Positions 4,429-60,971 of a stretch of 64,000 nt of DNA are shown piece after piece. Positions within the stretch are counted from its first letter, which is position 1. Every line of letters begins with the position of its first letter. This stretch comes from a virus (lineage: Duplodnaviria > Heunggongvirae > Uroviricota > Caudoviricetes): the IMG/VR virus record IMGVR_UViG_3300029258_003331. One strand, given 5' to 3'. Under the pieces are notes generated by a model that ran no database searches, was not told the DNA's origin, and saw only the letters and a program-made list of their open reading frames with translations. The position numbers and the translations under genes were made by a program.

Positions 4429-4481
4429 TTGGGTTTCTCCTTGTTCTGAGGTGGCGTTTTACGGACCTGGGCTCCTTTCGA

Positions 4482-4500
4482 CATGTATAACCGGTTCCAA
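4482..4500 (-). promoter_or_regulatory. Conserved GGAACCGGTTATACATG element, class-II motif copy 1
   Basis: Gene-direction orientation, 54 nt upstream of the 4428 minus-strand start. Confidence 0.4.
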
Positions 4501-8048: not shown

Positions 8049-8525
8049 TTGATGAACAACATTCAGATCGCCAAGGAACTGGTTGCCATCGCCAGAGATA
8101 TTTCTCCTGAAGTGGACGAGTGGCAAACGAAGTTTCCCTATGAACTGATTGACAAACTCGACACTGAATACAACTCCCTGAATCGGTGGTATCGTGACCT
8201 GCGCCAGTCCAATCCTGACGCCGCGAGTTTGTTAAATGACGCCCTCAAGAGCATGGTGACTTTGCTGGCTCGGTTGAAAAGGAGTGCTGAGAGTTTGTAC
8301 TTGACGGCTTCTCATCGTCCTGTTGCTGGCGCGGACATGGGCTCAGTAATCGCAATGGCTATTTCACGGCTAGAAAGGCTGCAGGACGAGTTTACTGCGG
8401 TCAGGGATAAGATGAAGCGGAGCCGGGAGCCTGTTATCCGGAACACTGTCAAAAAACTCAATGTTGCCTTGGATGCATTCAAGGATGTGATGAGTAAGAT
8501 GGTGAGCGTTGAGGCATCGGTTTAA
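8049..8525 (+). CDS. Helix-family small protein (158 aa)
   Basis: AGGAGCACTTG then ATG. N-terminus MMNNIQIAKELVAIARDIS. Confidence 0.8.
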   Translation: MMNNIQIAKELVAIARDISPEVDEWQTKFPYELIDKLDTEYNSLNRWYRDLRQSNPDAASLLNDALKSMVTLLARLKRSAESLYLTASHRPVAGADMGSVIAMAISRLERLQDEFTAVRDKMKRSREPVIRNTVKKLNVALDAFKDVMSKMVSVEASV

Positions 8526-8548
8526 GATTCTGCAGACGGAGGAAAAGG

Positions 8549-8965
8549 ATGAGTAAGAAGGCGCGTGTTTCAGATAAGATGGTAGCCGAGAAATTGGTGC
8601 GCCTAGCCAAGGAACTCGTTGGCGGGGCAAAAGAAGCGGCTGGGATGTTTTTCGTGTATGACGTTATCGGTGACTCAATTATCCTGCAAGCACTCAGGGA
8701 GGTAAGAACTGGTGACATTCTCAAGGACGTCAACGCCGACGCCAATGATGCAGTCAAGCAGATGGCTAAGAAACTCTCCGCTGTCGAGGCTGGGTTGAAG
8801 GGAAATGGTTCGGCGTACAGGATAACCGAGAAGCCGACGGATGCTGTCTTGTTGAATGTTGGTGGTCGCATGTACGTCTCCGGGGGCGCTTCGTTTTCTG
8901 CTGACGATGTTGCTGCTGCGGAGAAAGTCGTTAAGAGACAGAAATTCCGTCTGCAGGCTTTTTGA
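8549..8965 (+). CDS. Helix-family small protein (138 aa)
   Basis: GACGGAGGAAAAGG then ATG. N-terminus MSKKARVSDKMVAEKLVRLAKELVGG. Confidence 0.8.
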   Translation: MSKKARVSDKMVAEKLVRLAKELVGGAKEAAGMFFVYDVIGDSIILQALREVRTGDILKDVNADANDAVKQMAKKLSAVEAGLKGNGSAYRITEKPTDAVLLNVGGRMYVSGGASFSADDVAAAEKVVKRQKFRLQAF

Positions 8966-8978
8966 TGGAGATTGTGGC

Positions 8979-9269
8979 ATGAATCAAAACGAAATTGCCG
9001 AGCGCGTAGCATATAGCGAAAAGCAGTGGGAACAGGCAACCCGGCTTATCGAGAGCGGTGACTCGTTGGTGAAGATTCTGCAGCAGGACTTAGATCGGGT
9101 GCAGAAAGCCGTGGACGCTGCTCAGAGGCAACTTAAGGGAGCGCAGCGGGCAGGAGCAGGCAGGACGATTTCTCCGGATATTATTGACGCCCACATCATT
9201 CCGGCTCTGCGCACAATGAATTCGACGGTGCATGGTCTCTTTGAGCAGGCAAAGGCAACCGTGAAATGA
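8979..9269 (+). CDS. Hypothetical protein (96 aa) with weak motif NEIAERVAYS
   Basis: ATG 8979 is 9 nt after GGAG. Stop overlaps the next gene start (ATGA). Confidence 0.5.
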   Translation: MNQNEIAERVAYSEKQWEQATRLIESGDSLVKILQQDLDRVQKAVDAAQRQLKGAQRAGAGRTISPDIIDAHIIPALRTMNSTVHGLFEQAKATVK

Positions 9270-10777
9270 GTATCGCTGACGTCACATATACCAACATTAC
9301 TTTCCAAAAAGCCAAAGCAACGGCGGCGCAGATGGGGGCGACGTTGTTTTGGTATGAAGGTGTGCCTTGGATCATGCGAAAGGGGCAGTGGGAAATAGAC
9401 AGGCAGAAGCCCAGACTGAAAGCCCGGAAACGCACGGCAAGGATGTCGGTGAAAAAAGACGGTGAGACAACAGACAGGCGTATTGCTGTCGAACTAATCA
9501 GAGTTGCCGACTTGCTGTTGGGTTCCAGGGCAAAGTTCTTGATGGATGAAGCAGGGGGAGGAGAACCGCAGGGACGGCTATATCGGTCACTGAGGTCTTT
9601 GACAAAGAGCAACAATGGTCTTTGGGAGTCCCCGAAGCAACGTGACTTCATCAAACGTATGATTCAGAGAGGTGGCAAGAGCCCGACGAGTGGCTATTTT
9701 TCTGCTAAGATGCTTGCCAAGGCACCTTCCCAGCCTTACACGGGCATTGTTGGTACGGAATACTGGCACGGGAGAAACTGGGGCAAAAAGCAGCGATACA
9801 TGCTCTACGTGTATTTTGTCGATGATTACGGTATTGTGCGAGAGTTAAAAGGCAAGATGAAGTACAACGAGAAGGAGGGGCTAGGTCCTGAACTTGTCGG
9901 TTTCCAAGTTACGTTTGACCGCCCAGCAAATCTCGGGCTCGTTCAAGAAGAGAAAGAAGATCCGTGGTTTGATGAGCACCGGAAAGAAATCGACTTTGCC
10001 AAAGAATGGTTGGGCGACAACGATTTCTGGAAGAAATGGCTGGGGGAATTAGATGACGGTGTGCGTATTCCAGACAAGATGTGGGAACGCATGTTAGAAG
10101 ATGCCGAGAGGGAGAGTACAAAGGACGCACTCGAAGGATTTCCACGGGCTCCTACTAAGACTGAACTAGAACTGAAGATACAGTTCGTGAAGGTTTACGA
10201 AGGACAGTACGGAACCTCGGTCGGTTTAGGAGGAGTGGATAAGCGTTACCCTGAACGTTGTTTTATCATGGTAAGCGCTGATTGGTTGGACAGGAACTTG
10301 CCTCAAGACATGGCAGATGATTTTGATGCGTGGCTCAATGGATACGAGGATGTTTCTCCCAGACCAGTGCTTAAGGGCAAGACCATGACCATCGCGGGGG
10401 AATTCGAATCAGACGGCGAGGTCATCAAAAAAGTGAAGCGCGCCCGACTGAAGATGGTGAAAATCGCAAAAAGGGCTAGCATGAAATTGCGGATGACGAA
10501 TGGACGTGCCGAAAAGCGAGTAACCGAGCAACTCCAGGGAATGAAACTCAAGGCTCGGAACAAGGGAGATGTTAACAGCGCGGTTATCTCTGGGGGCTAC
10601 TATGCCGGAAAGCACGAGCAAAGAGCGTATGTCTATCCTGGTAACTCCTACGGAACGGCGGTGTGGAGAGTGACGTTCAAGGAAAACGAGGCATTGAATC
10701 CGATAAACAACTCGGGTGCTTTTTTGTTCACGGTCGATCCTGATTTGACTGTGACGCGCTGGGACACGAGAAAATGA
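9266..10777 (+). CDS. Hypothetical protein (503 aa) carrying the family helix (DRRIAVELIRVADLLLG) at residues about 70-86
   Basis: ATGA-coupled start. Long ORF with diverse composition. An in-frame ATG (9443) lies 10 codons before the motif. Confidence 0.85.
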   Translation: MSIADVTYTNITFQKAKATAAQMGATLFWYEGVPWIMRKGQWEIDRQKPRLKARKRTARMSVKKDGETTDRRIAVELIRVADLLLGSRAKFLMDEAGGGEPQGRLYRSLRSLTKSNNGLWESPKQRDFIKRMIQRGGKSPTSGYFSAKMLAKAPSQPYTGIVGTEYWHGRNWGKKQRYMLYVYFVDDYGIVRELKGKMKYNEKEGLGPELVGFQVTFDRPANLGLVQEEKEDPWFDEHRKEIDFAKEWLGDNDFWKKWLGELDDGVRIPDKMWERMLEDAERESTKDALEGFPRAPTKTELELKIQFVKVYEGQYGTSVGLGGVDKRYPERCFIMVSADWLDRNLPQDMADDFDAWLNGYEDVSPRPVLKGKTMTIAGEFESDGEVIKKVKRARLKMVKIAKRASMKLRMTNGRAEKRVTEQLQGMKLKARNKGDVNSAVISGGYYAGKHEQRAYVYPGNSYGTAVWRVTFKENEALNPINNSGAFLFTVDPDLTVTRWDTRK

Positions 10778-33389: not shown

Positions 33390-35252
33390 ATGAGCGCCAC
33401 AACGACGAAACACAGCAAGAAGAATGCTCGCTATGTTGAGCGGCAAAAACAACTCAAAGCCGTTCAGGAGGTCGAGCGTGCCCTCAAAGTAATCATCCCA
33501 CACATGTGCCGGGACGGTAGGGTAACCATCAAGCATGTGGCTCCCGGCAATCCCCCTTGTGCCAATGTGAAAACCCGCACCATTTTCATGCCGCCACTCA
33601 ACGGTCTACAGGATCTTATGTTGGCACGGGCTTACTACTATCACGAGGTACTCCACATTGCTCACAGCCATCTCTCGGAGTCTCAGTGGGAGGAAATCCG
33701 TGAGAACAAGGCTCTGAAGACAATTTTGAATTCTCTGGATGATTACCGAATTGAAGCGAAGGGTGCAAGAAAATACGAAGGCTGCCGGGTGGTTTTCAAC
33801 TGGAGCCGGGACTACCACAACAAGAAAATTGCAGGACAAGTGCAACGTGGGGAAACCGTTGAGATTCCACTTTGGGAAGCCGCATGCGCCATGGAGATAA
33901 TGTGCAAGGGGGCGCGGTTGGCATGGCGCGCTGAGGGGCTCGCGGCAGAGTACATCAGCGCTGCCTATGAGACATACCAAGAGGTGCGTGGAGCAGAATC
34001 CACAGGGGATTGCCTGGTGATCGCCAGAAAGATTTACGACATCATTAAGGCAATAAAGAAAGAGCAGCAAGGACAAGGGGAACAAGGGGAACAAAAGGGA
34101 CAACAAGAGGGACAACAAGAGGGACAACAAGAGGGACAACAAGAGGGACAACAAGAGGGACAACAAGAGGGACAACAAGGGAAGGAGACAGCAACAGCGG
34201 ACCCCAGGGAAGGCGAGAGTACAGACAACGAAACAAGTGGACAGGTCGAAAACACGAAGGATGATCGAACAGACGAAGAGGTTGCTGGTGCGCTTGAGAA
34301 GGAGGCAGAAGGCGAGGACCTGGGAGAATTCCTGCGGCGCGAACTTGAAGCGCAAATCGACGAAGTTCCCGAGGCAGATCGTCGCTATCGCAGTATTAGG
34401 GAAAACGACGCATACGAGGTGCCCGATAGCACCAGTGTGGCTCAGTTCAACGCAGTCCGCGAAGAAGTGGCAAACAGCATTATGGGTATCAGTCGAGCAC
34501 TGGACCAGGCTCTCCGCACACTTAGTCGCTCTCGTAAGGAACAATACATGCGACGCGGAAAACTTGACATGCGGCGGCTTGTGGATGCGGCAGCCGGATT
34601 GGACAAACGGGTCTTTTACCAGGTTCGAGACGGTGAGAAATTGGATACAGCGGTAGTCATTATTGTGGACGAAAGCGCTTCGATGTCTGCTTCACGATAC
34701 GCCATGCAGCGGCTTGTTGCGGCGTTGGGGGAGACCCTGAACAAACTGGGGGTTCGCTTTGAGATTGTCGGAAGTACCACGAAATACTTTGGCGGCGAAA
34801 TTCCCAGAAAGTTACTAATTCCGGGCTATGATCGAACAAACCCTCTCAGGTTGCGTATTTATAAGACCTTCACCGAGAGATGGGAAGCCGTCAAAACACG
34901 CATAGTTCGCATTTCAGCCTTCAAGCACAATGTGGACTGTGAGGCAATTGAGATGGCTGTCGCGCGCTTGTCTACGTGCCGAGAGCGCCGTAGGATCATT
35001 TTCAGTTTGAGCGATGGTTGTCCCGAAGCAGGACATAACAACGAGCAGGAAATGGGTCAGTTTCTCAAGTACGTTTGTGAGCGCAGTCGAAGAGCGGGAG
35101 TCGAGGTATATGGGTTCGGTGTGCGCACAATAGAACCGAGGAAGTTTTACGGGAGGGATTATTTTGTCTACCTGAAAGATGAGCGACAAATGGGACAAGA
35201 TTTCTTCCGTCGGTTTGCGGACATCATCACAAGAGGTCGTTTCAGGGCGTAG
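33390..35252 (+). CDS. Putative metallopeptidase (HExxH) – vWA-domain protein, CobT/DUF2201-like (620 aa)
   Basis: GAGACCGGTTATAGG motif 29 nt upstream. YYYHEVLHIAHSH in the N-domain. (QEGQ)n low-complexity linker. VVIIVDESASMSAS MIDAS motif in the C-terminal vWA fold. Confidence 0.9.
   Translation: MSATTTKHSKKNARYVERQKQLKAVQEVERALKVIIPHMCRDGRVTIKHVAPGNPPCANVKTRTIFMPPLNGLQDLMLARAYYYHEVLHIAHSHLSESQWEEIRENKALKTILNSLDDYRIEAKGARKYEGCRVVFNWSRDYHNKKIAGQVQRGETVEIPLWEAACAMEIMCKGARLAWRAEGLAAEYISAAYETYQEVRGAESTGDCLVIARKIYDIIKAIKKEQQGQGEQGEQKGQQEGQQEGQQEGQQEGQQEGQQEGQQGKETATADPREGESTDNETSGQVENTKDDRTDEEVAGALEKEAEGEDLGEFLRRELEAQIDEVPEADRRYRSIRENDAYEVPDSTSVAQFNAVREEVANSIMGISRALDQALRTLSRSRKEQYMRRGKLDMRRLVDAAAGLDKRVFYQVRDGEKLDTAVVIIVDESASMSASRYAMQRLVAALGETLNKLGVRFEIVGSTTKYFGGEIPRKLLIPGYDRTNPLRLRIYKTFTERWEAVKTRIVRISAFKHNVDCEAIEMAVARLSTCRERRRIIFSLSDGCPEAGHNNEQEMGQFLKYVCERSRRAGVEVYGFGVRTIEPRKFYGRDYFVYLKDERQMGQDFFRRFADIITRGRFRA
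34064..34181 (+). repeat. 12-bp coding tandem repeat (GGGACAACAAGA) x7, preceded by degenerate copies
   Basis: Encodes the (QEGQ)n linker of the HExxH-vWA protein. Confidence 0.85.
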
Positions 35253-36933: not shown

Positions 36934-38169
36934 ATGCCCACAAAAGCCAGTCTTACAGATGAGGAGCAACGAGTAGTCGAGGCAGTCAAAAAACTCGTTG
37001 CTGAACACGGAACTGTTGAGGTGGGGTGGGACGATCCTGTTGTTGCCGACCACTTTGACGTACTCCGGAAATCCAAAGTTCGTCGCTGTCTTGTCAAAGG
37101 GGCAGACAGCATCGTTGTGGACATTTACGACACGACGAAAACTGTCCGGCTCTTTGCCATCTCGGGAACTCACTCAGAGGGGCGACAAAAAGAACGAGGC
37201 AAGAAAAGGACGTCCAAAAAGAAGATTCAGCACACCTACATCAAGCCACGCCTGCATCAGCGCATGAAAAAACTCATTCAGAGCCCTTCGTCCTTGGTGG
37301 TGTGCGGCGTGGGTCCGACCGGGTGTGGGAAGACCACACATATGCGGCTGATGGCTGAAGAATTGAACATGGAACTAGAACTCATCAACTGCAAGCGGGA
37401 CATGGACACCGCTTCGTTTATTGGCGAGAAAACCATTGAGGTAGACGAGAAGACGGAACAGAGTATCATCAAATTTCTCGAAGGACCTGTCATCCGCGCC
37501 ATGAAGTGCGGTCTTGACGAAAAAGGCAACGAAGTTGGGAATCCAGCCCTCCTGGTTGTTGACGAATTTCCGATGATACCGAGTTGGATTGCCATAGGGT
37601 TGAATAACCTGCTTGACAACTTCAGTCCACGGCGGCAGATCCGGGTTGACGCTGATGGCGCTCGGGTAGTAACGAGCCACAGTGGATTCCGGATTGTGTT
37701 GCTGGGCAATACGATTGGGAGGGGGATCCTCAGTACGCGGGATGCAGGCTACGTGGCGCAGGGAGACGCACTAGACGACAGTACCCTTGACCGTATTGAC
37801 GCGATTTTTCACTACGGGTATAACCGCCGCGCTGAAGAATCGATCTTGCGAGAAAAGATCGGCAATGACAGCATGGTCCGCAAGTTGCTCCGGTTCCGTG
37901 ACGCCATACGGAATCTCAAACGACAGGGAGAAGTGACAACCCCATTCTCAACGCGCCTCATCGTGAGCGTTTGCGACCTCTACCGGGAATACGACGAAGA
38001 TATCGCTTGGGCGTTGCATGACGCGGTCTTTGGGAAACTTGTGGATGACAGTCCAGATCCGAATGTTCCCGGCGGCGAACTGGCTGTGTACAATGAGCAG
38101 GCAATGCAAATCTTCGGTATTGACGTGCTGAAGAGTGCGGCGGACGATTCCGACATGGATTACGTTTGA
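36934..38169 (+). CDS. AAA+ ATPase, MoxR/CobS-like (411 aa)
   Basis: GAGACCGGTTATAG motif 31 nt upstream. Walker A VCGVGPTGCGKTT. Walker B LLVVDEFPM. Confidence 0.9.
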   Translation: MPTKASLTDEEQRVVEAVKKLVAEHGTVEVGWDDPVVADHFDVLRKSKVRRCLVKGADSIVVDIYDTTKTVRLFAISGTHSEGRQKERGKKRTSKKKIQHTYIKPRLHQRMKKLIQSPSSLVVCGVGPTGCGKTTHMRLMAEELNMELELINCKRDMDTASFIGEKTIEVDEKTEQSIIKFLEGPVIRAMKCGLDEKGNEVGNPALLVVDEFPMIPSWIAIGLNNLLDNFSPRRQIRVDADGARVVTSHSGFRIVLLGNTIGRGILSTRDAGYVAQGDALDDSTLDRIDAIFHYGYNRRAEESILREKIGNDSMVRKLLRFRDAIRNLKRQGEVTTPFSTRLIVSVCDLYREYDEDIAWALHDAVFGKLVDDSPDPNVPGGELAVYNEQAMQIFGIDVLKSAADDSDMDYV

Positions 38170-46265: not shown

Positions 46266-47579
46266 ATGATGCCCGATATTAACGTGAAAAGAGAGGTGAT
46301 GCGGGGCTCGGTCGATTTGATTCGGCACAAGTTGTTTTACGGGCACATACTTCAACAGATACCCAAAGTGTATAATGCCGAAAAATGGGGAATACCGACC
46401 ATGGGAGTCGGGAAGGAAGCCAATGATCTCTTGATAAAACTTTGTGTAAACGAGCAGTTCGTGCGGGAAATTTGGAAAAGAGCCGCAAACAGCGAGCAGG
46501 CCAGACAATGGCTAGGCTGTATCCTGGAGCACGAGGTTTTACACATTGTCTTTGACCACCTGAGTCTCCAATTCTACGATAAAACACGCGGCGCTGTGGC
46601 TGTGGATTTGGCGGTCAATTCCTACCTTCCTGAGCAGCACCTCCCTCCTGGTTGTTGTTTTCCGAATGACTACAACCTTGCGCAGGGCAAAAGCGCCATG
46701 TGGTACTACACGCACTTGGTGGATAATGAGCACTACCAAAAGCAGTTGGCGGATGAAACACTGGCCGTTCATATGGGAAATCAAAAACAACAAAGCAAAG
46801 GAAAAGGCGGAAAACAGGGAATAGGCGGAAAACAGGGAAAACAGGAAGAACAGGGAAAAGGTGGAAAACAGGGAAAAGGTGGTGATCTGGATATGTCTGG
46901 GTCGCATGAAATGTGGGACCGAGCGGCGCAGGACCCATTGCTGAAGGAATTTTGCAAAGACCTCGTCAGCAAAGCCCGGGAACTCGTTGGTAAGGAGTAC
47001 GGTGACATACCAGGGGCGGTAATCGAGCAGATAGAGGATTTGTTCAAGAAAAGACGACCCATTGTCCCCTGGAATAAGGTGCTCCGGAACTTCGCCGCGA
47101 GTGCTACGGAATCAAGTTTGGATTACACGATGAAACGCGTAAGTAAGCGTTTCGGTACGCGACCGGGCACGCGAAAAGAAGACGTGCTCAACCTTGCCGT
47201 AGCCGTCGATACAAGCGGGTCAATTAGCGATTCGCAGTTGGTGTTGTTCTTTAATGAGGTTCGCTGGATATGGCGCAATGGTTCTATTGTGACCGTCTAC
47301 GAAGCCGACGCCGATATCCAGGCGGTCTACAAATTCAAGGGTAAGTTCACCGGAGAGATACATGGTCGCGGCGGTACGGACTTGGAACCGGTCTTGAAGG
47401 AAACAGAAGGAAAATACGACGCGCTTATTTATTTCACCGATTTTTATGCGCCTCACATCGACAGGCGGTATAATATTCCTATCTTGTGGGTGCTGACTAC
47501 CGAACTGACGCGTGACCGGTTTCCTTACAAGTGGGGAAGATACATCAAGATTGAAGATAATAAGGCAAAAGTTGCCTGA
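46266..47579 (+). CDS. Second putative metallopeptidase (HExxH) – vWA protein, DUF2201-like (437 aa)
   Basis: ILEHEVLHIVFDHL N-domain. (GKQG)n linker. VAVDTSGSISDSQ MIDAS in the C-terminal vWA. Same architecture as 33390..35252. Confidence 0.9.
   Translation: MMPDINVKREVMRGSVDLIRHKLFYGHILQQIPKVYNAEKWGIPTMGVGKEANDLLIKLCVNEQFVREIWKRAANSEQARQWLGCILEHEVLHIVFDHLSLQFYDKTRGAVAVDLAVNSYLPEQHLPPGCCFPNDYNLAQGKSAMWYYTHLVDNEHYQKQLADETLAVHMGNQKQQSKGKGGKQGIGGKQGKQEEQGKGGKQGKGGDLDMSGSHEMWDRAAQDPLLKEFCKDLVSKARELVGKEYGDIPGAVIEQIEDLFKKRRPIVPWNKVLRNFAASATESSLDYTMKRVSKRFGTRPGTRKEDVLNLAVAVDTSGSISDSQLVLFFNEVRWIWRNGSIVTVYEADADIQAVYKFKGKFTGEIHGRGGTDLEPVLKETEGKYDALIYFTDFYAPHIDRRYNIPILWVLTTELTRDRFPYKWGRYIKIEDNKAKVA
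46795..46900 (+). repeat. Degenerate 12-bp coding repeat (GGAAAACAGGGA)n
   Basis: Encodes the (GKQG)n linker of the second HExxH-vWA protein. Confidence 0.7.
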
Positions 47580-49595: not shown

Positions 49596-50294
49596 ATGGG
49601 CGTAGCGGCGCATTGGTACTGCCTACTGCTTGATTCCCAGAGATTGCGCGGAATCAAGGACATCGAGCGTCATCTCTGGCGCGAGATGGGTCTCATATTT
49701 GGCGATGACTTTGAAGATGTGCGCTTGATAGGCGAACGGCTCGACGAGGACGCCTACGAGTTGTACTCCGAGAGTTACGCCTTTGTGAAATGCCGCAGTT
49801 ACGAACACCACGCACAACGTCTCAAAGCATCGTCCCTCATTCAACTTGTTCTCCCTTCTTTCCATAGCCCCGACATAGTTTCTGAAGATGCCATTGAAAC
49901 GTTTGACCGGGCGGCTCGGGTCAAGTGTGGCAATAACAGTCCCGTTTCGGTCGGGGATATTGTTTTGGTGCGCAGTGGCTATTTGGAGAACTTGTACGGC
50001 GTGGTTGTGCGCGAGGGGAAAAAAGACCGGTTTGAGGTCATGTTCAGGTTACACACCCGGCATTTCATCGAAGAGGTGTCGGAAAGAAACTTGTCAGCGC
50101 GGGGTAGCGTGTTTCGGGACCACGGTGTAAAGGTCCGAGTGAAAGCAATCGGCGATGCTGTTGATATCAGATTGCTTTCACCGCAAGTTGGGAAAGGCGC
50201 GAGGGATAGTCTTGAAAATAAGGCACGTAGGACGGCATGGAGACAGGAAAAGACGGTGGGGAAGAGAGAGTTACCGGCAACGGCCACACTTTGA
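49596..50294 (+). CDS. KOW-motif (NusG/Spt5-like) protein (232 aa)
   Basis: SVGDIVLVRSGYLENLYGVVVREGKKDRFEVMFRL fits the KOW consensus GxxVxVxxGxfxGxxGxV. Confidence 0.65.
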   Translation: MGVAAHWYCLLLDSQRLRGIKDIERHLWREMGLIFGDDFEDVRLIGERLDEDAYELYSESYAFVKCRSYEHHAQRLKASSLIQLVLPSFHSPDIVSEDAIETFDRAARVKCGNNSPVSVGDIVLVRSGYLENLYGVVVREGKKDRFEVMFRLHTRHFIEEVSERNLSARGSVFRDHGVKVRVKAIGDAVDIRLLSPQVGKGARDSLENKARRTAWRQEKTVGKRELPATATL

Positions 50295-50766
50295 CGTTAG
50301 CGAGGTCCGGGAGAACAAAGCCCTTTTTGACCTGCTGAACGCCAAAGACCGGGATGTGCTCTATCTCGTCTACGTGTCGAGAAAAAAACAACAAGCCGTG
50401 CGCCGTATCCTGCGGCGGTCGCAACCTATGCTGGTGTATGACATTAGACGCATACGCGAACGCATGGAGTTCATCGTTTATCTCAAGCGCGTTTTTGATA
50501 TCTTTTTGGATTTTTTGGAATTTCGCGCGGAGGAGTACGAACCCGAGATAATCGAAGCGCTCATCGTCATGTATTATACCACTTCGTATACCCAGTCCTC
50601 AGAGGTCCTCGGAAAGCCACAAATCTATGTCAGATATACATTTGACAAAGCCATAAAGCAGTTGCGAGAGAGAAAACATTGGGACGCTTACGAGATATTT
50701 GCCGCCATAGCCCGTAACAAGAATAAGGTCAAGCGGCTTTATAAGTCACGCGATAGCGCCTCCTGA
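50155..50766 (+). CDS. Sigma-70 region-4-like HTH protein, start undefined (203 aa as tabulated)
   Basis: LNAKDRDVLYLVYVSRKKQQAVRRILRRSQPMLVYDIRRIRERM resembles the sigma r4 / LuxR-type HTH. The first 47 codons overlap the KOW gene and are R-rich. No canonical start sits just after the KOW stop. Confidence 0.4.
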   Translation: MLLISDCFHRKLGKARGIVLKIRHVGRHGDRKRRWGRESYRQRPHFDVSEVRENKALFDLLNAKDRDVLYLVYVSRKKQQAVRRILRRSQPMLVYDIRRIRERMEFIVYLKRVFDIFLDFLEFRAEEYEPEIIEALIVMYYTTSYTQSSEVLGKPQIYVRYTFDKAIKQLRERKHWDAYEIFAAIARNKNKVKRLYKSRDSAS

Positions 50767-50860
50767 CTGCATATTTTTTTGATAATGCTGTCTTTTTAGA
50801 GGGTTACAGCAGTGTTCCTGCTGTCGTGGTCTGACGGTCTATCACGAGGAGGGGTTGGTC

Positions 50861-51130
50861 GTGGGTAAGGAATTTTACAGCGACTTCGTCTGGCATTCGG
50901 CTATCGGAATTGACAGCGTGGTAGACGGGCACAAACGGTTTTGTACGCGCTTGCCTAATACACGCAAAGCCAGGAGCATGTTTTTCCGCGCGGCTGGGGA
51001 CGGCAAATTGCTCATTCATCGCACTACTCAGGCTCTCTGGCGCGTGAGTGAGGATGGTGGTTCTATTGAGCCGGTTTTTGACACAGATGTTTTGACCGAG
51101 GAAGACCTTGCTGAAGGCTTCTCCGAGTAG
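50861..51130 (+). CDS. Hypothetical protein (89 aa)
   Basis: GAGGAGGGG then 6 nt then GTG. Confidence 0.5.
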   Translation: MGKEFYSDFVWHSAIGIDSVVDGHKRFCTRLPNTRKARSMFFRAAGDGKLLIHRTTQALWRVSEDGGSIEPVFDTDVLTEEDLAEGFSE

Positions 51131-52384: not shown

Positions 52385-52990
52385 ATGGCTGCTGACGATT
52401 TCAGCCGGGACGAGGGTTTTGACGAGGGACCGACGACCGAACTTGTAGTTGCCAGTCCCGAGACTAACCTGCCGACCGAAACTCCCCCGCCGGCTACCAA
52501 CATGAGGGAGCATCGGGCAAACCTGGTGCGTGACTACCACCACGGGGCTTCCTCGCTGGCTGAGAAATTGCGCCTCCAGGGTCGGGATAACAGCGAAGCC
52601 ATGGTTATGGCTATCGTGGCTGAGATTATCCAGGAAACGGATCATCTCCTCGGGAATGAGTTGGTAGCCACTGAGGACGGCGAATTACGAGACGCTTCGG
52701 TTATCTCTACAAAGCGTGCAGAGGTATTGGATAGGGCGCTCAAGGCGGTACAGACAAAACTGGTTTTCGACCGTGACCATGGCATTGACGTGGAGAGCCC
52801 AGCCATGCGGGTTATCTTCAAATTCTTCATGTCCAAGGTGAGACATGTGTTCAAACTTCTCAAGTACAGTGACGAGGCTTCCGACACTTTCTTTCGGACG
52901 TTTGCGAGTGTCATGGATGCATGGGAAGGTGAACTAAAGACGGAATTGCAAGGTAGTTCGGTGTTGAATCCAGAGAAGAACCAGCGATGA
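52385..52990 (+). CDS. Hypothetical protein directly upstream of TerL; candidate terminase small subunit (201 aa)
   Basis: Assigned from position only. ATGA overlap with TerL. Confidence 0.6.
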   Translation: MAADDFSRDEGFDEGPTTELVVASPETNLPTETPPPATNMREHRANLVRDYHHGASSLAEKLRLQGRDNSEAMVMAIVAEIIQETDHLLGNELVATEDGELRDASVISTKRAEVLDRALKAVQTKLVFDRDHGIDVESPAMRVIFKFFMSKVRHVFKLLKYSDEASDTFFRTFASVMDAWEGELKTELQGSSVLNPEKNQR

Positions 52991-54828
52991 CTAAAAAAAA
53001 CGACTTCATGGACGAACTCACCGAGGAGTTTCTTTCCGGAAACACGACGGATGTAGCCGACGTGATTACGTTTGTGGAGGCTCCATGGGGTCTCAATCTG
53101 ACGCTTTTCCCGGTCCAAAAGTGCGTACTCAAGGTGTATTACGGGCTCCCATTAGATAATCAGGAACGTAGCATCCAGGTCCCGAATATCATCAATGACA
53201 AGATACTCTACGAATTTACCGAGGTTGAGTTCCTGAAGTGGCTTTATGAGGAAGGTCGTTGCAACAGCCGAGAAATCATCGAGGCTCCGTATACCGAACT
53301 CATTCTGGTCATGGGCAGGCGAAGTGGCAAGTCAACAATAGCCTCTTGTATCTCTTGCTACGAGGTGTACAAACTCGTCAAAAGGGGCGACCCTTCGGCT
53401 TTCTACGGGTTCCCCCCCGACACCACTGTCGCCATCACGAACGTTGCGCCGACTGATGACCAAGCCAGCATTGTCTTCAATATGCTGCAGAAGAACGTTC
53501 TCGGTTGCCCTTTCTTGCGTGACCGGATAGTGAATCAAACGCTGACCTATTTCAACGTGCAAACTGATTCTGATCGCAACCTTCCGAGTAAAAAGCGCCG
53601 GGCTAGCATCATGTCCTTGGCTGGTGGTTGTGCTTCTAACAGCCTGCGCGGGCATAACAATATCGTGGTCGTGATGGACGAGATGGCGCACTTCATCGAC
53701 AACAACGGTCGATTTTCTGGCTCCGAGGTTTACAAGGCTCTGAAACCCTCCATTGGCTCGTTCAAGGGCGACGGCAAGATGGTAGGTATCAGTTCTCCCT
53801 ATGCCAAATACGGACAGTTTTGGGACTTGTATGTTGATAGTTTCAATCAGTGTGAAAATACTATCATGTTTCAGATGTATTCATCCCTCGTCAATCCAAC
53901 CATTCCGTCTGCGTTTCTCCGTGCGGAACGTCAGAGGGATCGCATTGGCTTCATGACCGAGTACGCTGGTGAGTTCAGCGATAAGGTCACAAGTTGGGTT
54001 GATGACGAAGATAAATTCAAAGCGTGCATCGTTAGAGGTCGTCCCAAGCCGGTGCGCGGACAGACGGGAACAGACTATTTCATGGGTGTTGACCTGGGCG
54101 TCAAGAACGACGGCACAGCAATTGTCATTTGTCACCGCGAACAGGGCATCAATCGCCGGGGGAAGGTGTTTGCCGGCACTCCCTCACGCATTATCGTGGA
54201 TTGGGCGCAAGTCTGGTTCTCGGGCTCCTCTGACGTGTGGGAGGTTTCCAACAACATCTATAAGGGTTGCAATAAATATGCCGAACACGACGTGATTCCA
54301 GTGGCTCTTATTGCCGAAGAGATTAAGAATTTGTGTCGCTGGTTTCCAATCAAGTCTGGGTGGTTTGATCAATGGAATGGATATTCGCTTCTGGAAATCC
54401 TGCACTCCATGGGCTTGAAGCAATTTCGCATGGAGCAAGTGACAGACAGGATGAACAGCGACACCTATCAACTGTTCAAGACTTTGTATAGTGAACAGAT
54501 GATCGAGTTTTACGATGATGAAACGCTGGAATCCGAGATTCTAGGGTTGGAGGCTGAACGCAAATCCAAAGCCAGGATAGAAGTGCGGGCTCCTAACAAG
54601 CGAGGTGCGCACGATGACCTCGCCGATGCTTGCGCCCGAGCCATTTTTGAGGCGTATGGTGCTGACGGTCCAAAAAACACGAATCTGACAGGAGGAGCCG
54701 GCGCAGCGGCAATTGGAAGTCGTGGAATGACAATGGCGATGAAAAATCACCAACGAGCGCAGTCCAGAATGCACGGCGCGCATCCGAGGAGGGTAGAAAG
54801 AAGCCACACGCGGACGCGATTTGTTTAG
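52987..54828 (+). CDS. terL: Terminase large subunit (613 aa)
   Basis: Walker A VMGRRSGKST. Walker B VVVMDEMAH. RNaseH-like nuclease Asp residues (GVDLGVKNDGTAIV, GAHDDLADA). Confidence 0.9.
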   Translation: MTKKNDFMDELTEEFLSGNTTDVADVITFVEAPWGLNLTLFPVQKCVLKVYYGLPLDNQERSIQVPNIINDKILYEFTEVEFLKWLYEEGRCNSREIIEAPYTELILVMGRRSGKSTIASCISCYEVYKLVKRGDPSAFYGFPPDTTVAITNVAPTDDQASIVFNMLQKNVLGCPFLRDRIVNQTLTYFNVQTDSDRNLPSKKRRASIMSLAGGCASNSLRGHNNIVVVMDEMAHFIDNNGRFSGSEVYKALKPSIGSFKGDGKMVGISSPYAKYGQFWDLYVDSFNQCENTIMFQMYSSLVNPTIPSAFLRAERQRDRIGFMTEYAGEFSDKVTSWVDDEDKFKACIVRGRPKPVRGQTGTDYFMGVDLGVKNDGTAIVICHREQGINRRGKVFAGTPSRIIVDWAQVWFSGSSDVWEVSNNIYKGCNKYAEHDVIPVALIAEEIKNLCRWFPIKSGWFDQWNGYSLLEILHSMGLKQFRMEQVTDRMNSDTYQLFKTLYSEQMIEFYDDETLESEILGLEAERKSKARIEVRAPNKRGAHDDLADACARAIFEAYGADGPKNTNLTGGAGAAAIGSRGMTMAMKNHQRAQSRMHGAHPRRVERSHTRTRFV

Positions 54829-55483: not shown

Positions 55484-57499
55484 ATGGCGAAGAGGAAAAC
55501 ACCGGTGAAGAGAAGAACCCCGCAGAGAAAACGCACAGCGACGCTTCGGGACGCGGCAGTAGAACAGGCATTGTCCGAAGCCTCTGCGCGAACTGATGAC
55601 GCTATTGGTGGCATTCCCTCCCCGGGACTCCAGCGTGGACCGGTAAATGATGTCAAGGCACGCATTGCTGCTGTCCGCGAAAAGAACGGTTTAATCGCTT
55701 CTGGGCTTCCGAGAATGCGTACTGCCGGAATGATGATGAGTCAATCCACGGGGATGGATGGCCTTTGGGGCAGTTCGTCTCTCGATGCATATCACACAAG
55801 TTACGCCTCTGGAAATACGCTCTATGGAGGCGGCGTTCGTGATGTTCCGACCTATTTTGTGATGATGAACCAGCAAAACGGGGGCGTTCTCTACTGGCCC
55901 GTTAGCCTCCGTGAGAAGTACGAATGGTATAGGTACTTCTCAAGAACGGATGCTTATGTTGGACGGGCGTTGGAGTTGCTGTCTGACCTGCCGATGAGCA
56001 AAATCACACTGAACATGCCCAAGATACCGAAGAAAGGACTCAAAAACGAAATCTATGAATTCTTTCAGGACATGTGCGAGAATTTGAATCTTTTTGAGCG
56101 CCTGCAGGAAATCTTGTGGGAATGGAACATGATCGGAAACTCCTTCCTCTTTCATGAGTGGTCCGCGAAAGAGAAGCGATGGAACAAAATTGTGATGCTG
56201 CCGCCGGAAGAGGTAAATTGTTTTACCTATCCGTTCAGTGATAACGCACGCATTGAGTATCGTCCTGAAAAACTGATGCAAATTGTCAAGGCATCGGCTG
56301 ATGTGACAGGTTACGATGTGCCGCAGGAAGACAAGGCGGCATGTAGTCGAGTTGAAATGATGAAAACACTGGTCAAGAATATCCCTCCCGAGGTCGTGAA
56401 GATGATAAGGGAGCAGGATTGTATCGTCATGGATACCGATCCCATGGCTGGAGGCAGACCTGGTTCCTTTGCGTATCATTTTGCTCGTCGTCGCAGTCCG
56501 TACATGGATTTGGGTGCCTCCGTGTTAGAACGCGTCTTGGTCCCCATGCTGCAGAAGGAAAACTACCGCTACACGCAACTTGCCTTGGCTACGAGAAACA
56601 TGACGCCGAAAAACAAGATCTCGGCTCCAGGTTTGAATGAGTCGGAAATTGAACAATTGCGGGCTCAAATCGACTTGTCCTACATGGACCCTGAATACTC
56701 TGTAGTCACGAACTACGAGTGGGATTGGGAGCAGATTGGCGCTGATGCTCGCTTGCTTGATCTTGCCAGCGAATATGAGATGATCGAGAATCAGGTATTC
56801 GCTGGGTTGGGGGTGACGAGGGAGTTGTTGACTGGCGAAGGCACGTATAGCGGCAATCGGATTACTGTTGAGATCCTGAACACTATCTTTTTGCTCACTC
56901 GTCAGATGCTTCAGCGTTATGTGGAGCGGAGTTTGTTCCGGCCGGTGGCAGAGGCGCACAAGTGGTATGAGGACACGAGATACGGCGTGCGCAAATATTG
57001 GTATCCGCGAGTTGCCTTTAACCGCTTGAGCATTAGGGATAATCAGGAGGTCTTCGAGAACCTGTTTCAACTCTACCAGAAAGGTTCTATGGATATCGAC
57101 GTGCTCTACGAGTTGTTCAATCTTGATAGTGATTACATTCATGAAAAAATCAAGGAGCAACTTTTCACGGTCAAGGACCCGAATTTCAATCGTACCATTG
57201 AGAACGTGGATGACGAGGTGGGTCGTGCGCTTGTGGAGCGTTCCGACGTCGTGGACAAGGTTGGCAAGTACCTGGGTCTCAAAGTGTCCGCGCCCCAAGG
57301 TGAGGGCGAGGGTGAATTCGGAGAGAGCGGATTCGGTGGAGGCTTTGAGGGTGGGTTCGGTGCGGAGGAACCTGCGGCAGAAGAGGAATCTGCGTTGGAT
57401 GAGATGGCAACGAGCATTGCAGAGGAATTGCCGGAGGACGCGGACGAGGGAGAAGTCAGGGAAGTGGTTGAGGAGTTGGCGGGGGCTGGAGTGTCGTGA
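55484..57499 (+). CDS. Putative portal protein (671 aa)
   Basis: Immediately downstream of TerL. Its size and acidic G/E-rich C-terminus are typical of portals. Assignment is from position and composition, not motifs. Confidence 0.8.
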   Translation: MAKRKTPVKRRTPQRKRTATLRDAAVEQALSEASARTDDAIGGIPSPGLQRGPVNDVKARIAAVREKNGLIASGLPRMRTAGMMMSQSTGMDGLWGSSSLDAYHTSYASGNTLYGGGVRDVPTYFVMMNQQNGGVLYWPVSLREKYEWYRYFSRTDAYVGRALELLSDLPMSKITLNMPKIPKKGLKNEIYEFFQDMCENLNLFERLQEILWEWNMIGNSFLFHEWSAKEKRWNKIVMLPPEEVNCFTYPFSDNARIEYRPEKLMQIVKASADVTGYDVPQEDKAACSRVEMMKTLVKNIPPEVVKMIREQDCIVMDTDPMAGGRPGSFAYHFARRRSPYMDLGASVLERVLVPMLQKENYRYTQLALATRNMTPKNKISAPGLNESEIEQLRAQIDLSYMDPEYSVVTNYEWDWEQIGADARLLDLASEYEMIENQVFAGLGVTRELLTGEGTYSGNRITVEILNTIFLLTRQMLQRYVERSLFRPVAEAHKWYEDTRYGVRKYWYPRVAFNRLSIRDNQEVFENLFQLYQKGSMDIDVLYELFNLDSDYIHEKIKEQLFTVKDPNFNRTIENVDDEVGRALVERSDVVDKVGKYLGLKVSAPQGEGEGEFGESGFGGGFEGGFGAEEPAAEEESALDEMATSIAEELPEDADEGEVREVVEELAGAGVS

Positions 57500-60143: not shown

Positions 60144-60971
60144 ATGGCGTCCAGTTCATCTTCAAGTTCTTCTTCAACTGTGCCTTTGCTCTCGGACTAT
60201 TGCGTTCGTGGCGCGGGGAATCTTCTCTACGATGGCACCTACACGGCTACTGGTTCTTACTTCAATGAGTATCCCTACTACGAAAACAGCAACGGCATGG
60301 AGTTGTTCTGGGCCGAGACGAATCAATGGGCTCTCGGGCAACGCGGGACGATTCAAGACTATCACGCCATTCCTCCCGCCACGCCAGGCACTACCGCTCC
60401 CGACGATGGAGAATGGGTGGAGTTTACCGGTCTCAATCCGCCTCCTGATGTATTTGGTGGGGCTTGCGCTCTCACCTCTTCAAGCAGTTCCTCAAGTAGT
60501 TCCTCGACGAGTAGCGAGTCTCACAGCAGCAATTCGTCGAGCAGCAGGTCTTCTTCCTCTTCTTCTTCATCGTGGAGTTCTTCCTCGGCGTCGTCTTCTT
60601 CGTCATCTTCGTCGTCTTCGTCATCTACCACGCCGAGCCTGTCTTTCCCTTATCCGACAATGGGGACCGTGCGCAGACCGGTTGGACAGGGGTGCTCGTC
60701 TTGCGTCCATCAAGAATATTGCCAGGCTTTTTACTGGCTCATTCGGTATGCGCAGTATCCCAGCGTCACAGGAAAGAACGTGGACACCGTTGACAAACAC
60801 CTCGGGATACAATGCGAATCATGGTCAAACGACCCAGCTCAGCACATAACGCATTGGAATTCTGCCGACTATGACGAAAATTATCGACTTGCAGCCACGG
60901 AACAGATACTCATAGAGCCGTTTCCTAGTGGCATAGATGACGCAGTGACGGCTGGTTACAGAGAACACTAG
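60144..60971 (+). CDS. Ser-rich low-complexity protein (275 aa)
   Basis: GGGGTAAAAA then ATG. Poly-Ser runs of 9 and more than 40 residues. Confidence 0.7.
   Translation: MASSSSSSSSSTVPLLSDYCVRGAGNLLYDGTYTATGSYFNEYPYYENSNGMELFWAETNQWALGQRGTIQDYHAIPPATPGTTAPDDGEWVEFTGLNPPPDVFGGACALTSSSSSSSSSSTSSESHSSNSSSSRSSSSSSSSWSSSSASSSSSSSSSSSSTTPSLSFPYPTMGTVRRPVGQGCSSCVHQEYCQAFYWLIRYAQYPSVTGKNVDTVDKHLGIQCESWSNDPAQHITHWNSADYDENYRLAATEQILIEPFPSGIDDAVTAGYREH
60474..60625 (+). repeat. Low-complexity TCN-rich tract encoding poly-Ser
   Basis: More than 40 consecutive Ser/Thr codons. Confidence 0.8.

Follow-up and report, generated by a model that had tools for sequence, protein, structure and literature searches.

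A NusG-like gene and a partly overlapping double sigma-4 gene ahead of the packaging and structural genes of an uncultured phage

Two open reading frames (ORFs) that overlap on the plus strand of a viral DNA stretch of 64,000 nucleotides (nt; IMG/VR record IMGVR_UViG_3300029258_003331, Caudoviricetes; the whole stretch is called the window below) raise the question of how the second of them comes to be translated. Both are present as a preliminary description of the sequence had reported them, the first from 49596 to 50294 and the second, in the +1 frame relative to it, running to 50766. That description saw no conventional start for the second ORF close to the stop of the first, and left a choice between a programmed frameshift, non-canonical initiation and an indel in the assembly. 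The answer put forward here, to which a probability of about 0.8 is attached as a whole, is that these are two separate, partly overlapping genes, with no recoding and no sequence error, and with a joint role in late transcription proposed for their products. The first product is NusG-like; the second carries two helix-turn-helix (HTH) units of the sigma-70 region 4 type and is referred to as the sigma-4 protein. The elements on which the argument turns are the following.

49596–50294, plus strand: NusG-like gene; ATG start, 232 amino acids (aa), TGA stop at 50292–50294
50212–50766, plus strand: double sigma-4 gene; TTG start, 184 aa, TGA stop at 50764–50766
50201–50206, plus strand: Shine-Dalgarno (SD)-like GAGGGA, as read in the sequence, with a 5-nt spacer to the TTG at 50212
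50212–50294, plus strand: dual-coding overlap of 83 nt; frame 0 specifies the NusG-like C-terminal tail, frame +1 the N-terminus of the sigma-4 protein

The sigma-4 frame is open from 50143 to 50766. It had been held that, close to the stop of the first ORF, this frame lacks any ATG, GTG or TTG codon, its one upstream start being that at 50155; this is mistaken, in that the frame holds, besides the ATG at 50155, TTG codons at 50161, 50188 and 50212. The first seven residues read from the last of these, MKIRHVG, match the N-terminal motif of the protein family. In this regard, the dismissal of the overlap as arginine-rich junk stands for part of it only, its first seven residues being the conserved N-terminus of the family. 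TTG is a standard bacterial start codon (translation table 11), and it is therefore unnecessary to invoke non-canonical initiation; indeed, with a TTG and an SD found at the position where the orthologues start, the choice between frameshift, unconventional start and indel is not supported. In other words, as judged by sequence comparison, the sigma-4 gene starts at TTG 50212, which is an ordinary start with its own SD inside the 3′ end of the NusG-like gene. The RNA around this codon and the overlap is not unusually structured (z-score +0.75).

The comparison comprises 20 distinct loci. A word-indexed protein search with the second ORF returned only five homologues together with a truncated copy of the window protein, the contigs of which were compared; 18 further IMG/VR loci were added, and every locus was analysed with profiles of both proteins (loci and proteins are given L and P numbers below). 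In every compared orthologue the conserved N-terminus of the sigma-4 protein, [M]KI[RN][YH][VI]G, sits on a start codon, and a purine-rich, SD-like box stands before the aligned start:

L001: ATG start, preceded by GGGGG
L002: GTG start, preceded by GAGGTGAG
L005: TTG start, preceded by AGGAGG
L007: TTG start, preceded by GAGGGA
Window: TTG start at 50212

An in-frame stop lies 3–33 nt upstream of the conserved start in the orthologues, such that their proteins cannot start any earlier. A similar motif (..Y/C-V/I-G..I-E..) is found at the head of many more distant family members. The arrangement of the two genes across the loci is as follows.

15 of 20 distinct loci: sigma-4 gene begins before the upstream gene has ended, overlap of 20–107 nt, frame +1
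2 of 20 (L005, L027): genes separated
1 of 20 (L008): single fused ORF
1 of 20 (L014): NusG-like and sigma-4 genes about 1.27 kb apart
1 of 20 (L023): upstream DNA absent

In L005 the upstream gene ends at a TAA (4476–4478) and the AGGAGG-led TTG start follows at 4482, with zero overlap; the two genes are also separated in L027-29. Cleanly separated genes, which the preliminary description had named as the observation in related genomes that would overturn its own reading, are thus found in L005 and L027, the start in L005 being a TTG and not an ATG. The tails of the NusG-like proteins past the sigma-4 start differ between loci in both length and sequence, and in the clade of L001 the arginine-rich tail is the out-of-frame reading of the conserved MKIRYVG..IEN codons (derived by hand from the L001 sequence). 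As a separate observation, the spacing in L014 (1159–3001) suggests an inserted gene in an otherwise tight pair.

Public gene calls do not show this start. On L010 and L011 the sigma-4 gene is shortened to 112 aa (P0002) with an internal ATG start, which leaves an unannotated gap of 133 nt (2200–2332 on these contigs, or 50295–50427 in the window), and the calls of P0001 and P0004 begin, in a similar way, at internal GTGs. Gene callers of the Prodigal type restrict same-strand overlaps to about 60 nt, and this limit probably accounts for the 112-aa miscall; the shortened calls are probably a systematic mis-annotation arising from the long same-strand overlap.

A start further upstream, at ATG 50155, TTG 50161 or TTG 50188, would give a protein of 192–203 aa and an overlap of 107–140 nt. 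In its favour are a frame open from 50143 and the preference for ATG as start codon, but no SD stands ahead of 50155, the residues added by such a start are unmatched in any orthologue, the frame of the orthologues is closed just before the conserved start, and the N-terminus of the family aligns with 50212. A start upstream of 50212 is accordingly quite improbable.

A programmed +1 frameshift that fuses the NusG-like protein to the sigma-4 protein, whether as the sole route to the latter or as an additional one, would have to act at the following site.

50289–50295, plus strand: CTT TGA C (CUU UGA C in the RNA) at the NusG-like stop; identical to the +1 frameshift heptamer of E. coli prfB, an identity judged to be coincidental

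The likeness to prfB extends to the downstream ORF, which lies in the +1 frame here as it does in every overlapping orthologous pair, and natural fusions of the two proteins in relatives (see below) indicate that a fused product would probably work. Nevertheless, the heptamer occurs in only one of 17 distinct stop contexts, that of the window; the sequence just upstream of the stop, ccggcaacggccaca, lacks the SD-like stimulator of the prfB type (an SD 3 nt upstream); and the next 90 nt are no more stably folded than shuffled sequence (z-score −0.90). The slippery heptamer and downstream structure that had been proposed as a check therefore come out as an unconserved heptamer and a fold that is not significant. 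Moreover, a shift at the stop would bypass the conserved MKIRHVG, whereas a related motif (..KYVAGY.., ..DIVGFY..) is retained in the natural fusions; the sigma-4 gene possesses a conserved start and SD of its own; and L005 and L027 are not in a +1 relation at all. Among −1 slippery heptamers, GGGAAAG at 50190 was the sole one that a scan of the overlap picked up; it lies upstream of the conserved start and is irrelevant because a −1 shift would not enter the +1 frame of the second ORF. Frameshifting at this site is, on these grounds, highly improbable.

That a single-base assembly or sequencing indel split one fused gene is very unlikely, indeed close to negligible, because, although fused orthologues exist, metagenome assemblies can have homopolymer errors and the overlap contains short AAAA and GGGG runs, two other assemblies (L010 from ENA and L011 from JGI) agree with the window at every position over 3,699 bp, eight contigs carry the 232-aa product unchanged, and the split, overlapping layout recurs in 15 distinct, divergent loci, each with its own SD and start.

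The idea of a fusion does have a counterpart in evolution, which by sequence is a gene fusion with a long acidic linker and not a frameshift. When 1.84 billion cluster representatives were searched exhaustively by profile at E ≤ 1e-3, 200 members of the family came out, mostly of 175–250 aa. Two larger members, P0066 (432 aa) and P0068 (433 aa), match the NusG-like profile in the N-terminal portion (E = 4.2e-11 and 1.3e-5, respectively, by local hmmsearch) and the sigma-4 profile at residues 235–408 and 260–410, the two parts being joined by the long acidic linker; P0066 occupies the syntenic slot, after the PhageMetallopep gene and two small genes. A further fusion, P0036 (285 aa), joins the sigma-4 protein to a homologue of the product of a third gene (BLASTP E = 3e-20), which in the window lies as follows.

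50861–51130, plus strand: gene of ~89 aa, the third of the cassette, with a GTG start 6 nt after GAGGAGGGG

This gene is found directly 3′ of the sigma-4 gene in every locus in which downstream DNA was searched. Its product carries the motif F..DF.WHSAIG ... W.VSEDG.SI.P.FD.D.LTE.DL, has no match to a Pfam or PHROG family and, from its sequence context, looks like a third component of the module. Since the ~89-aa gene follows the sigma-4 gene in all of these searched loci, and since such 'Rosetta-stone' fusions span both junctions, the NusG-like, double sigma-4 and ~89-aa genes are, as far as sequence comparison goes, a conserved three-gene cassette in a group of large uncultured phages.

The KOW domain that had been called in the first ORF is borne out by the predicted structure, which has the NusG/Spt5 fold with an NGN domain in addition to KOW:

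49596–49916, plus strand: NGN-like domain (alpha/beta), residues ~1–107
49956–50108, plus strand: KOW barrel, residues ~121–171

The C-terminal tail is basic and is a low-confidence region of the model. The best sequence match is to the NCBIfam UpxY antiterminator model (E = 2.1e-4, 21.3 bits against a cut-off of 100), alongside a PHROG 'transcription antiterminator' match at E = 0.006. KOW2_Spt5 matches six of nine family members with a best E of 0.0054, and the NusG, RfaH and Spt5 models reach 12–15 bits, in relatives only; by sequence score, the curated cut-off for NusG/Spt5 membership is missed throughout. Profile searches of both the NusG-like and the sigma-4 families against PDB sequences gave nothing meaningful.

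For the second ORF, the assignment of an HTH of the sigma70 r4/LuxR type holds in both sequence and fold, and the protein consists of two such units, duplicated, of the sigma-70 region 4 type:

50341–50490, plus strand: HTH1, residues ~44–93, which holds the HTH stretch quoted in the preliminary description
50542–50670, plus strand: HTH2, residues ~111–153

The N-terminal half is a second region-4-like unit, as seen in the internal comparison (hhalign 96.8%), and the protein ends in a conserved C-terminal helix. There is no Sigma70_r2 match in Pfam, and the NCBIfam alignments all fall on model positions 96–165 of 165 (TIGR02937 or equivalent). On this sequence evidence the protein is not a sigma factor by definition, having region 4 only and no region 2. 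Foldseek of its model against BFVD gave nothing below E = 0.48, blastn and tblastn against 50,697 GenBank phages gave zero matches, a scan of GTDB genomes for prophage copies found none, and cluster look-ups returned only 'hypothetical protein' or nameless entries. Among distant relatives the double sigma-4 module is also seen duplicated in tandem (P0084, 396 aa) and fused to a 5′-3′ exonuclease/FEN domain (P0130); P0084, P0130, P0116 and P0104 show other architectures, including the module at the C-terminus or in the middle of longer proteins, and the end of P0116 resembles, by eye, a serine-recombinase domain.

The order of genes across the loci is DUF2201/VWA, PhageMetallopep, HNH-repeat, a 149-aa gene, the cassette, a ~400-aa acidic protein, a ~200-aa protein and TerL, such that the cassette lies directly upstream of the terminase–portal module. 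In the window, genes on the plus strand follow one another closely from 50.8 kb up to the end at 64 kb, and the first sizeable gap after the two regulator genes, 50767–50860, holds a conserved motif.

50776–50801, plus strand: conserved intergenic motif, T-tract plus GATAAT, 10 nt, TTTAGAG, from an alignment of syntenic intergenic regions
52987–54828: TerL
55484–57499: portal

As a regular expression this motif is unique in the window and occurs at the equal position in L002, L007 and L009; a T-tract with [TG]ATA[AT]T follows the sigma-4 stop in most of the 20 loci. No conserved −35 element is visible. The pattern makes 50776–50801 a candidate late promoter. Neither the consensus sigma-70 promoter nor intrinsic terminators exceeded chance expectation in scans of the late region and of the surroundings of the pair. 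Several smaller features accompany the motif. In L002, L007, L009, L013, L016 and L018-L026 the box is often trailed ~10 nt later by T[ATG]TAGA[GA]; in several loci the SD of the next gene lies within about 12 nt of the T-tract/[TG]ATA[AT]T box; and a hairpin without a T-run, ACAGCAG-tgttc-CTGCTGT, lies at 50806–50824 in the window, between the candidate promoter and the 89-aa gene, with a counterpart in the leader, GGGGC-tttgt-GCCCC, at about 2672–2686 in L007, such hairpins being present only in loci with a long leader.

It is plausible, as had been suggested for the pair, that these are phage transcription regulators, and from fold, synteny and fusions the three-gene cassette is probably a late-transcription module. 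In the mechanism proposed, the NusG-like, sigma-4 and ~89-aa proteins would act together on RNA polymerase. The double-HTH protein would provide recognition of a DNA site at the T-tract/GATAAT motif, or of the beta flap, or of both, and the NusG-like protein would bind the clamp helices and make the polymerase processive. The target would be the late operon, closely packed and at least 13 kb long, that starts after the motif at 50776–50801. The sigma-4 fold implies that the RNA polymerase of the host is bacterial. NusG paralogues are typically encoded beside the long operons that they activate, and the NGN domain shares its site on RNA polymerase with sigma (PMC7819879).

A more far-reaching version, which is speculative and rather unlikely, is that the NusG-like and double sigma-4 proteins jointly replace a sigma factor, working as separate chains in the window and as a single chain in P0066 and P0068. 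On beta′, the clamp-helix site that sigma region 2 normally fills would then be taken by the NGN domain, the beta flap and the upstream DNA would be bound by the sigma-4-like HTHs, and host RNA polymerase, starting at the −35-less T-tract/GATAAT promoter, would have its own processivity factor on board by the time it left. If true, this would place the hand-over from initiation to elongation within a single phage module; to our knowledge, no such built-in hand-over has been described.

Several considerations weigh against the two-gene, late-transcription interpretation. With respect to the gene model, initiation at 50212 is argued by comparison, 83 nt is an unusually long overlap for genes on the same strand, and all of the overlapping loci are in the +1 relation, so that a frameshift product may occasionally be formed. 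With respect to the proteins, the family matches at the level of sequence are under the curated cut-offs for both, the AlphaFold2 models are of medium quality (mean predicted local distance difference test, pLDDT, of 69 and 68.5, from shallow alignments, of 9 and 6 sequences), and HTH1 has a pLDDT of only about 60. The candidate promoter motif is reported in the very sequences that served to define it, and when one mismatch is allowed it is not enriched in the window (11 matches against 5.6 expected). Finally, the functional model draws on fold, synteny and fusions.

A different target for the pair was raised in the preliminary description, namely a set of GAGACCGGTTATACAGG elements elsewhere in the window, which have seven matches at three or fewer mismatches against 0.05 expected.

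4482, 15566, 20489 and 21883, minus strand: GAGACCGGTTATACAGG elements
31104 and 36890, plus strand: GAGACCGGTTATACAGG elements

These six are intergenic and in the same orientation as the gene downstream, an SD and a start codon following 15–35 nt after them; their strand tracks that of the genes, minus before 22 kb and plus after 31 kb, and a GATTTT box lies about 25 nt upstream of the elements. From these sequence features they look like a phage-specific class of early or middle promoters, while the seventh match, at 60674, with three mismatches and inside a gene, is probably due to chance. Were the pair to read these elements, it would be a specificity factor for early or middle promoters and not a factor for the late operon. 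The elements are real by their count and six of them lead genes, and no other obvious sequence-specific transcription factor is apparent in the window, though most of its ORFs have no family match. Against this, the elements are confined to 4–37 kb, save for the doubtful one at 60674, with none by the cassette or the late module; their core is absent from 11 related loci (searched up to 6 kb on each side of the cassette) in which the cassette is nonetheless conserved; and a regulator whose gene closes the pre-late block would arrive too late to drive the genes that the elements lead. It is thus unlikely that the pair serves the GAGACCGGTTATACAGG elements.

It may also be asked whether the double-HTH protein is a transcription factor at all, since it could instead be a DNA-recognition subunit for packaging, akin to a small terminase, or might shut off host transcription as a decoy for the beta flap or for sigma region 4 of the host. 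Small terminases often bear an N-terminal HTH, the sigma-4 gene lies about 2.2 kb upstream of TerL, and the protein, without sigma region 2, is not a self-sufficient sigma. On the other hand, the fusion to a protein of NusG/Spt5 fold in P0066 and P0068 points to RNA polymerase, and three genes (89 aa, 404 aa and 201 aa) intervene between the sigma-4 gene and TerL, with the 201-aa gene in the usual slot of the small terminase. Both the packaging and the decoy roles are distinctly unlikely.

The late-transcription module proposed here may be set beside several known systems. The NusG-like protein shares the two-domain NGN and KOW fold with the specialised NusG paralogues RfaH, LoaP, UpxY, TaA and ActX, and its gene adjoins a long operon on which it could act, just as loaP, taA and upxY adjoin theirs (PMC7819879). 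It differs from these paralogues in being phage-encoded and always paired, at times fused, with a double sigma-4 HTH protein, in sequence scores that are far below every family cut-off, and in that no ops-like or leader recruitment element was identified for it. The HTH units of its partner have region 4, the part that recognises the −35 element and binds the beta flap, in common with sigma-70 and extracytoplasmic function (ECF) sigma factors, in both sequence and fold; unlike these, the window protein lacks region 2, and with it the part responsible for −10 recognition, core binding and DNA melting, and has instead a tandem pair of region 4 units with a C-terminal helix.

In T4, gp55 and gp33 together form a split sigma for late promoters that have no −35 element. 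The likeness is of two small phage proteins proposed to occupy the sites of sigma region 2 (clamp helices) and sigma region 4 (beta flap), and of a candidate motif that is −10-like with no conserved −35. There is no homology to gp55 or gp33, however; clamp binding would here fall to an NGN domain, DNA-binding HTHs are present in the sigma-4-like partner, and the analogy is wholly inferential. The antiterminators of the lambda Q type and the activators RinA, ArpU and LtrC are encoded ahead of terS and switch on and sustain a long late transcript, to which the position of the regulator genes just upstream of the packaging and structural operon is comparable; no match to these families was found at E ≤ 1 in Pfam, PHROGs or NCBIfam. 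The best BFVD match to 'antitermination protein Q', at E = 1.1, is meaningless.

The anomaly that drew attention to this locus is in itself ordinary, amounting to two overlapping genes and an overlooked TTG start. What lies behind it is a phage-borne member of NusG/Spt5, the sole transcription-factor family that is universally conserved, locked in synteny with a double region-4 protein, occasionally fused to it, and heading the packaging and structural genes of scarcely annotated large uncultured phages. If the pair does act on RNA polymerase, phages would have in it a new means of running a late operon, and nature would have provided an experiment in the sharing of the polymerase between NGN and sigma domains. 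The literature searched, the coverage of which was incomplete, yielded no account of a NusG-like/sigma-4 pair in phages; this is weak evidence of novelty. The practical yield is a corrected gene model, together with a family definition (the 200 cluster representatives) that can be used in annotation.

Beyond the cassette, the plus-strand block in which it lies also contains a VWA/MoxR set, made up of a CobT-like VWA gene (33390–35252), a MoxR/CbbQ-type AAA+ ATPase (36934–38169) and a DUF2201 VWA-like metallopeptidase (46266–47579). Two-component signalling genes are unusual in phage genomes; histidine-kinase and response-regulator genes, with HisKA, HATPase_c and Response_reg domains, are nevertheless found just upstream of DUF2201 in L001 (1–1740) and L009 (1–1284), on contigs of 253 kb and 18.6 kb, respectively. 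In L009, moreover, a terminase-like gene (8424–10753) is apparently split by an intein with a LAGLIDADG endonuclease, the 1026-aa product carrying Intein_splicing, LAGLIDADG_3 and MJ0330_N.

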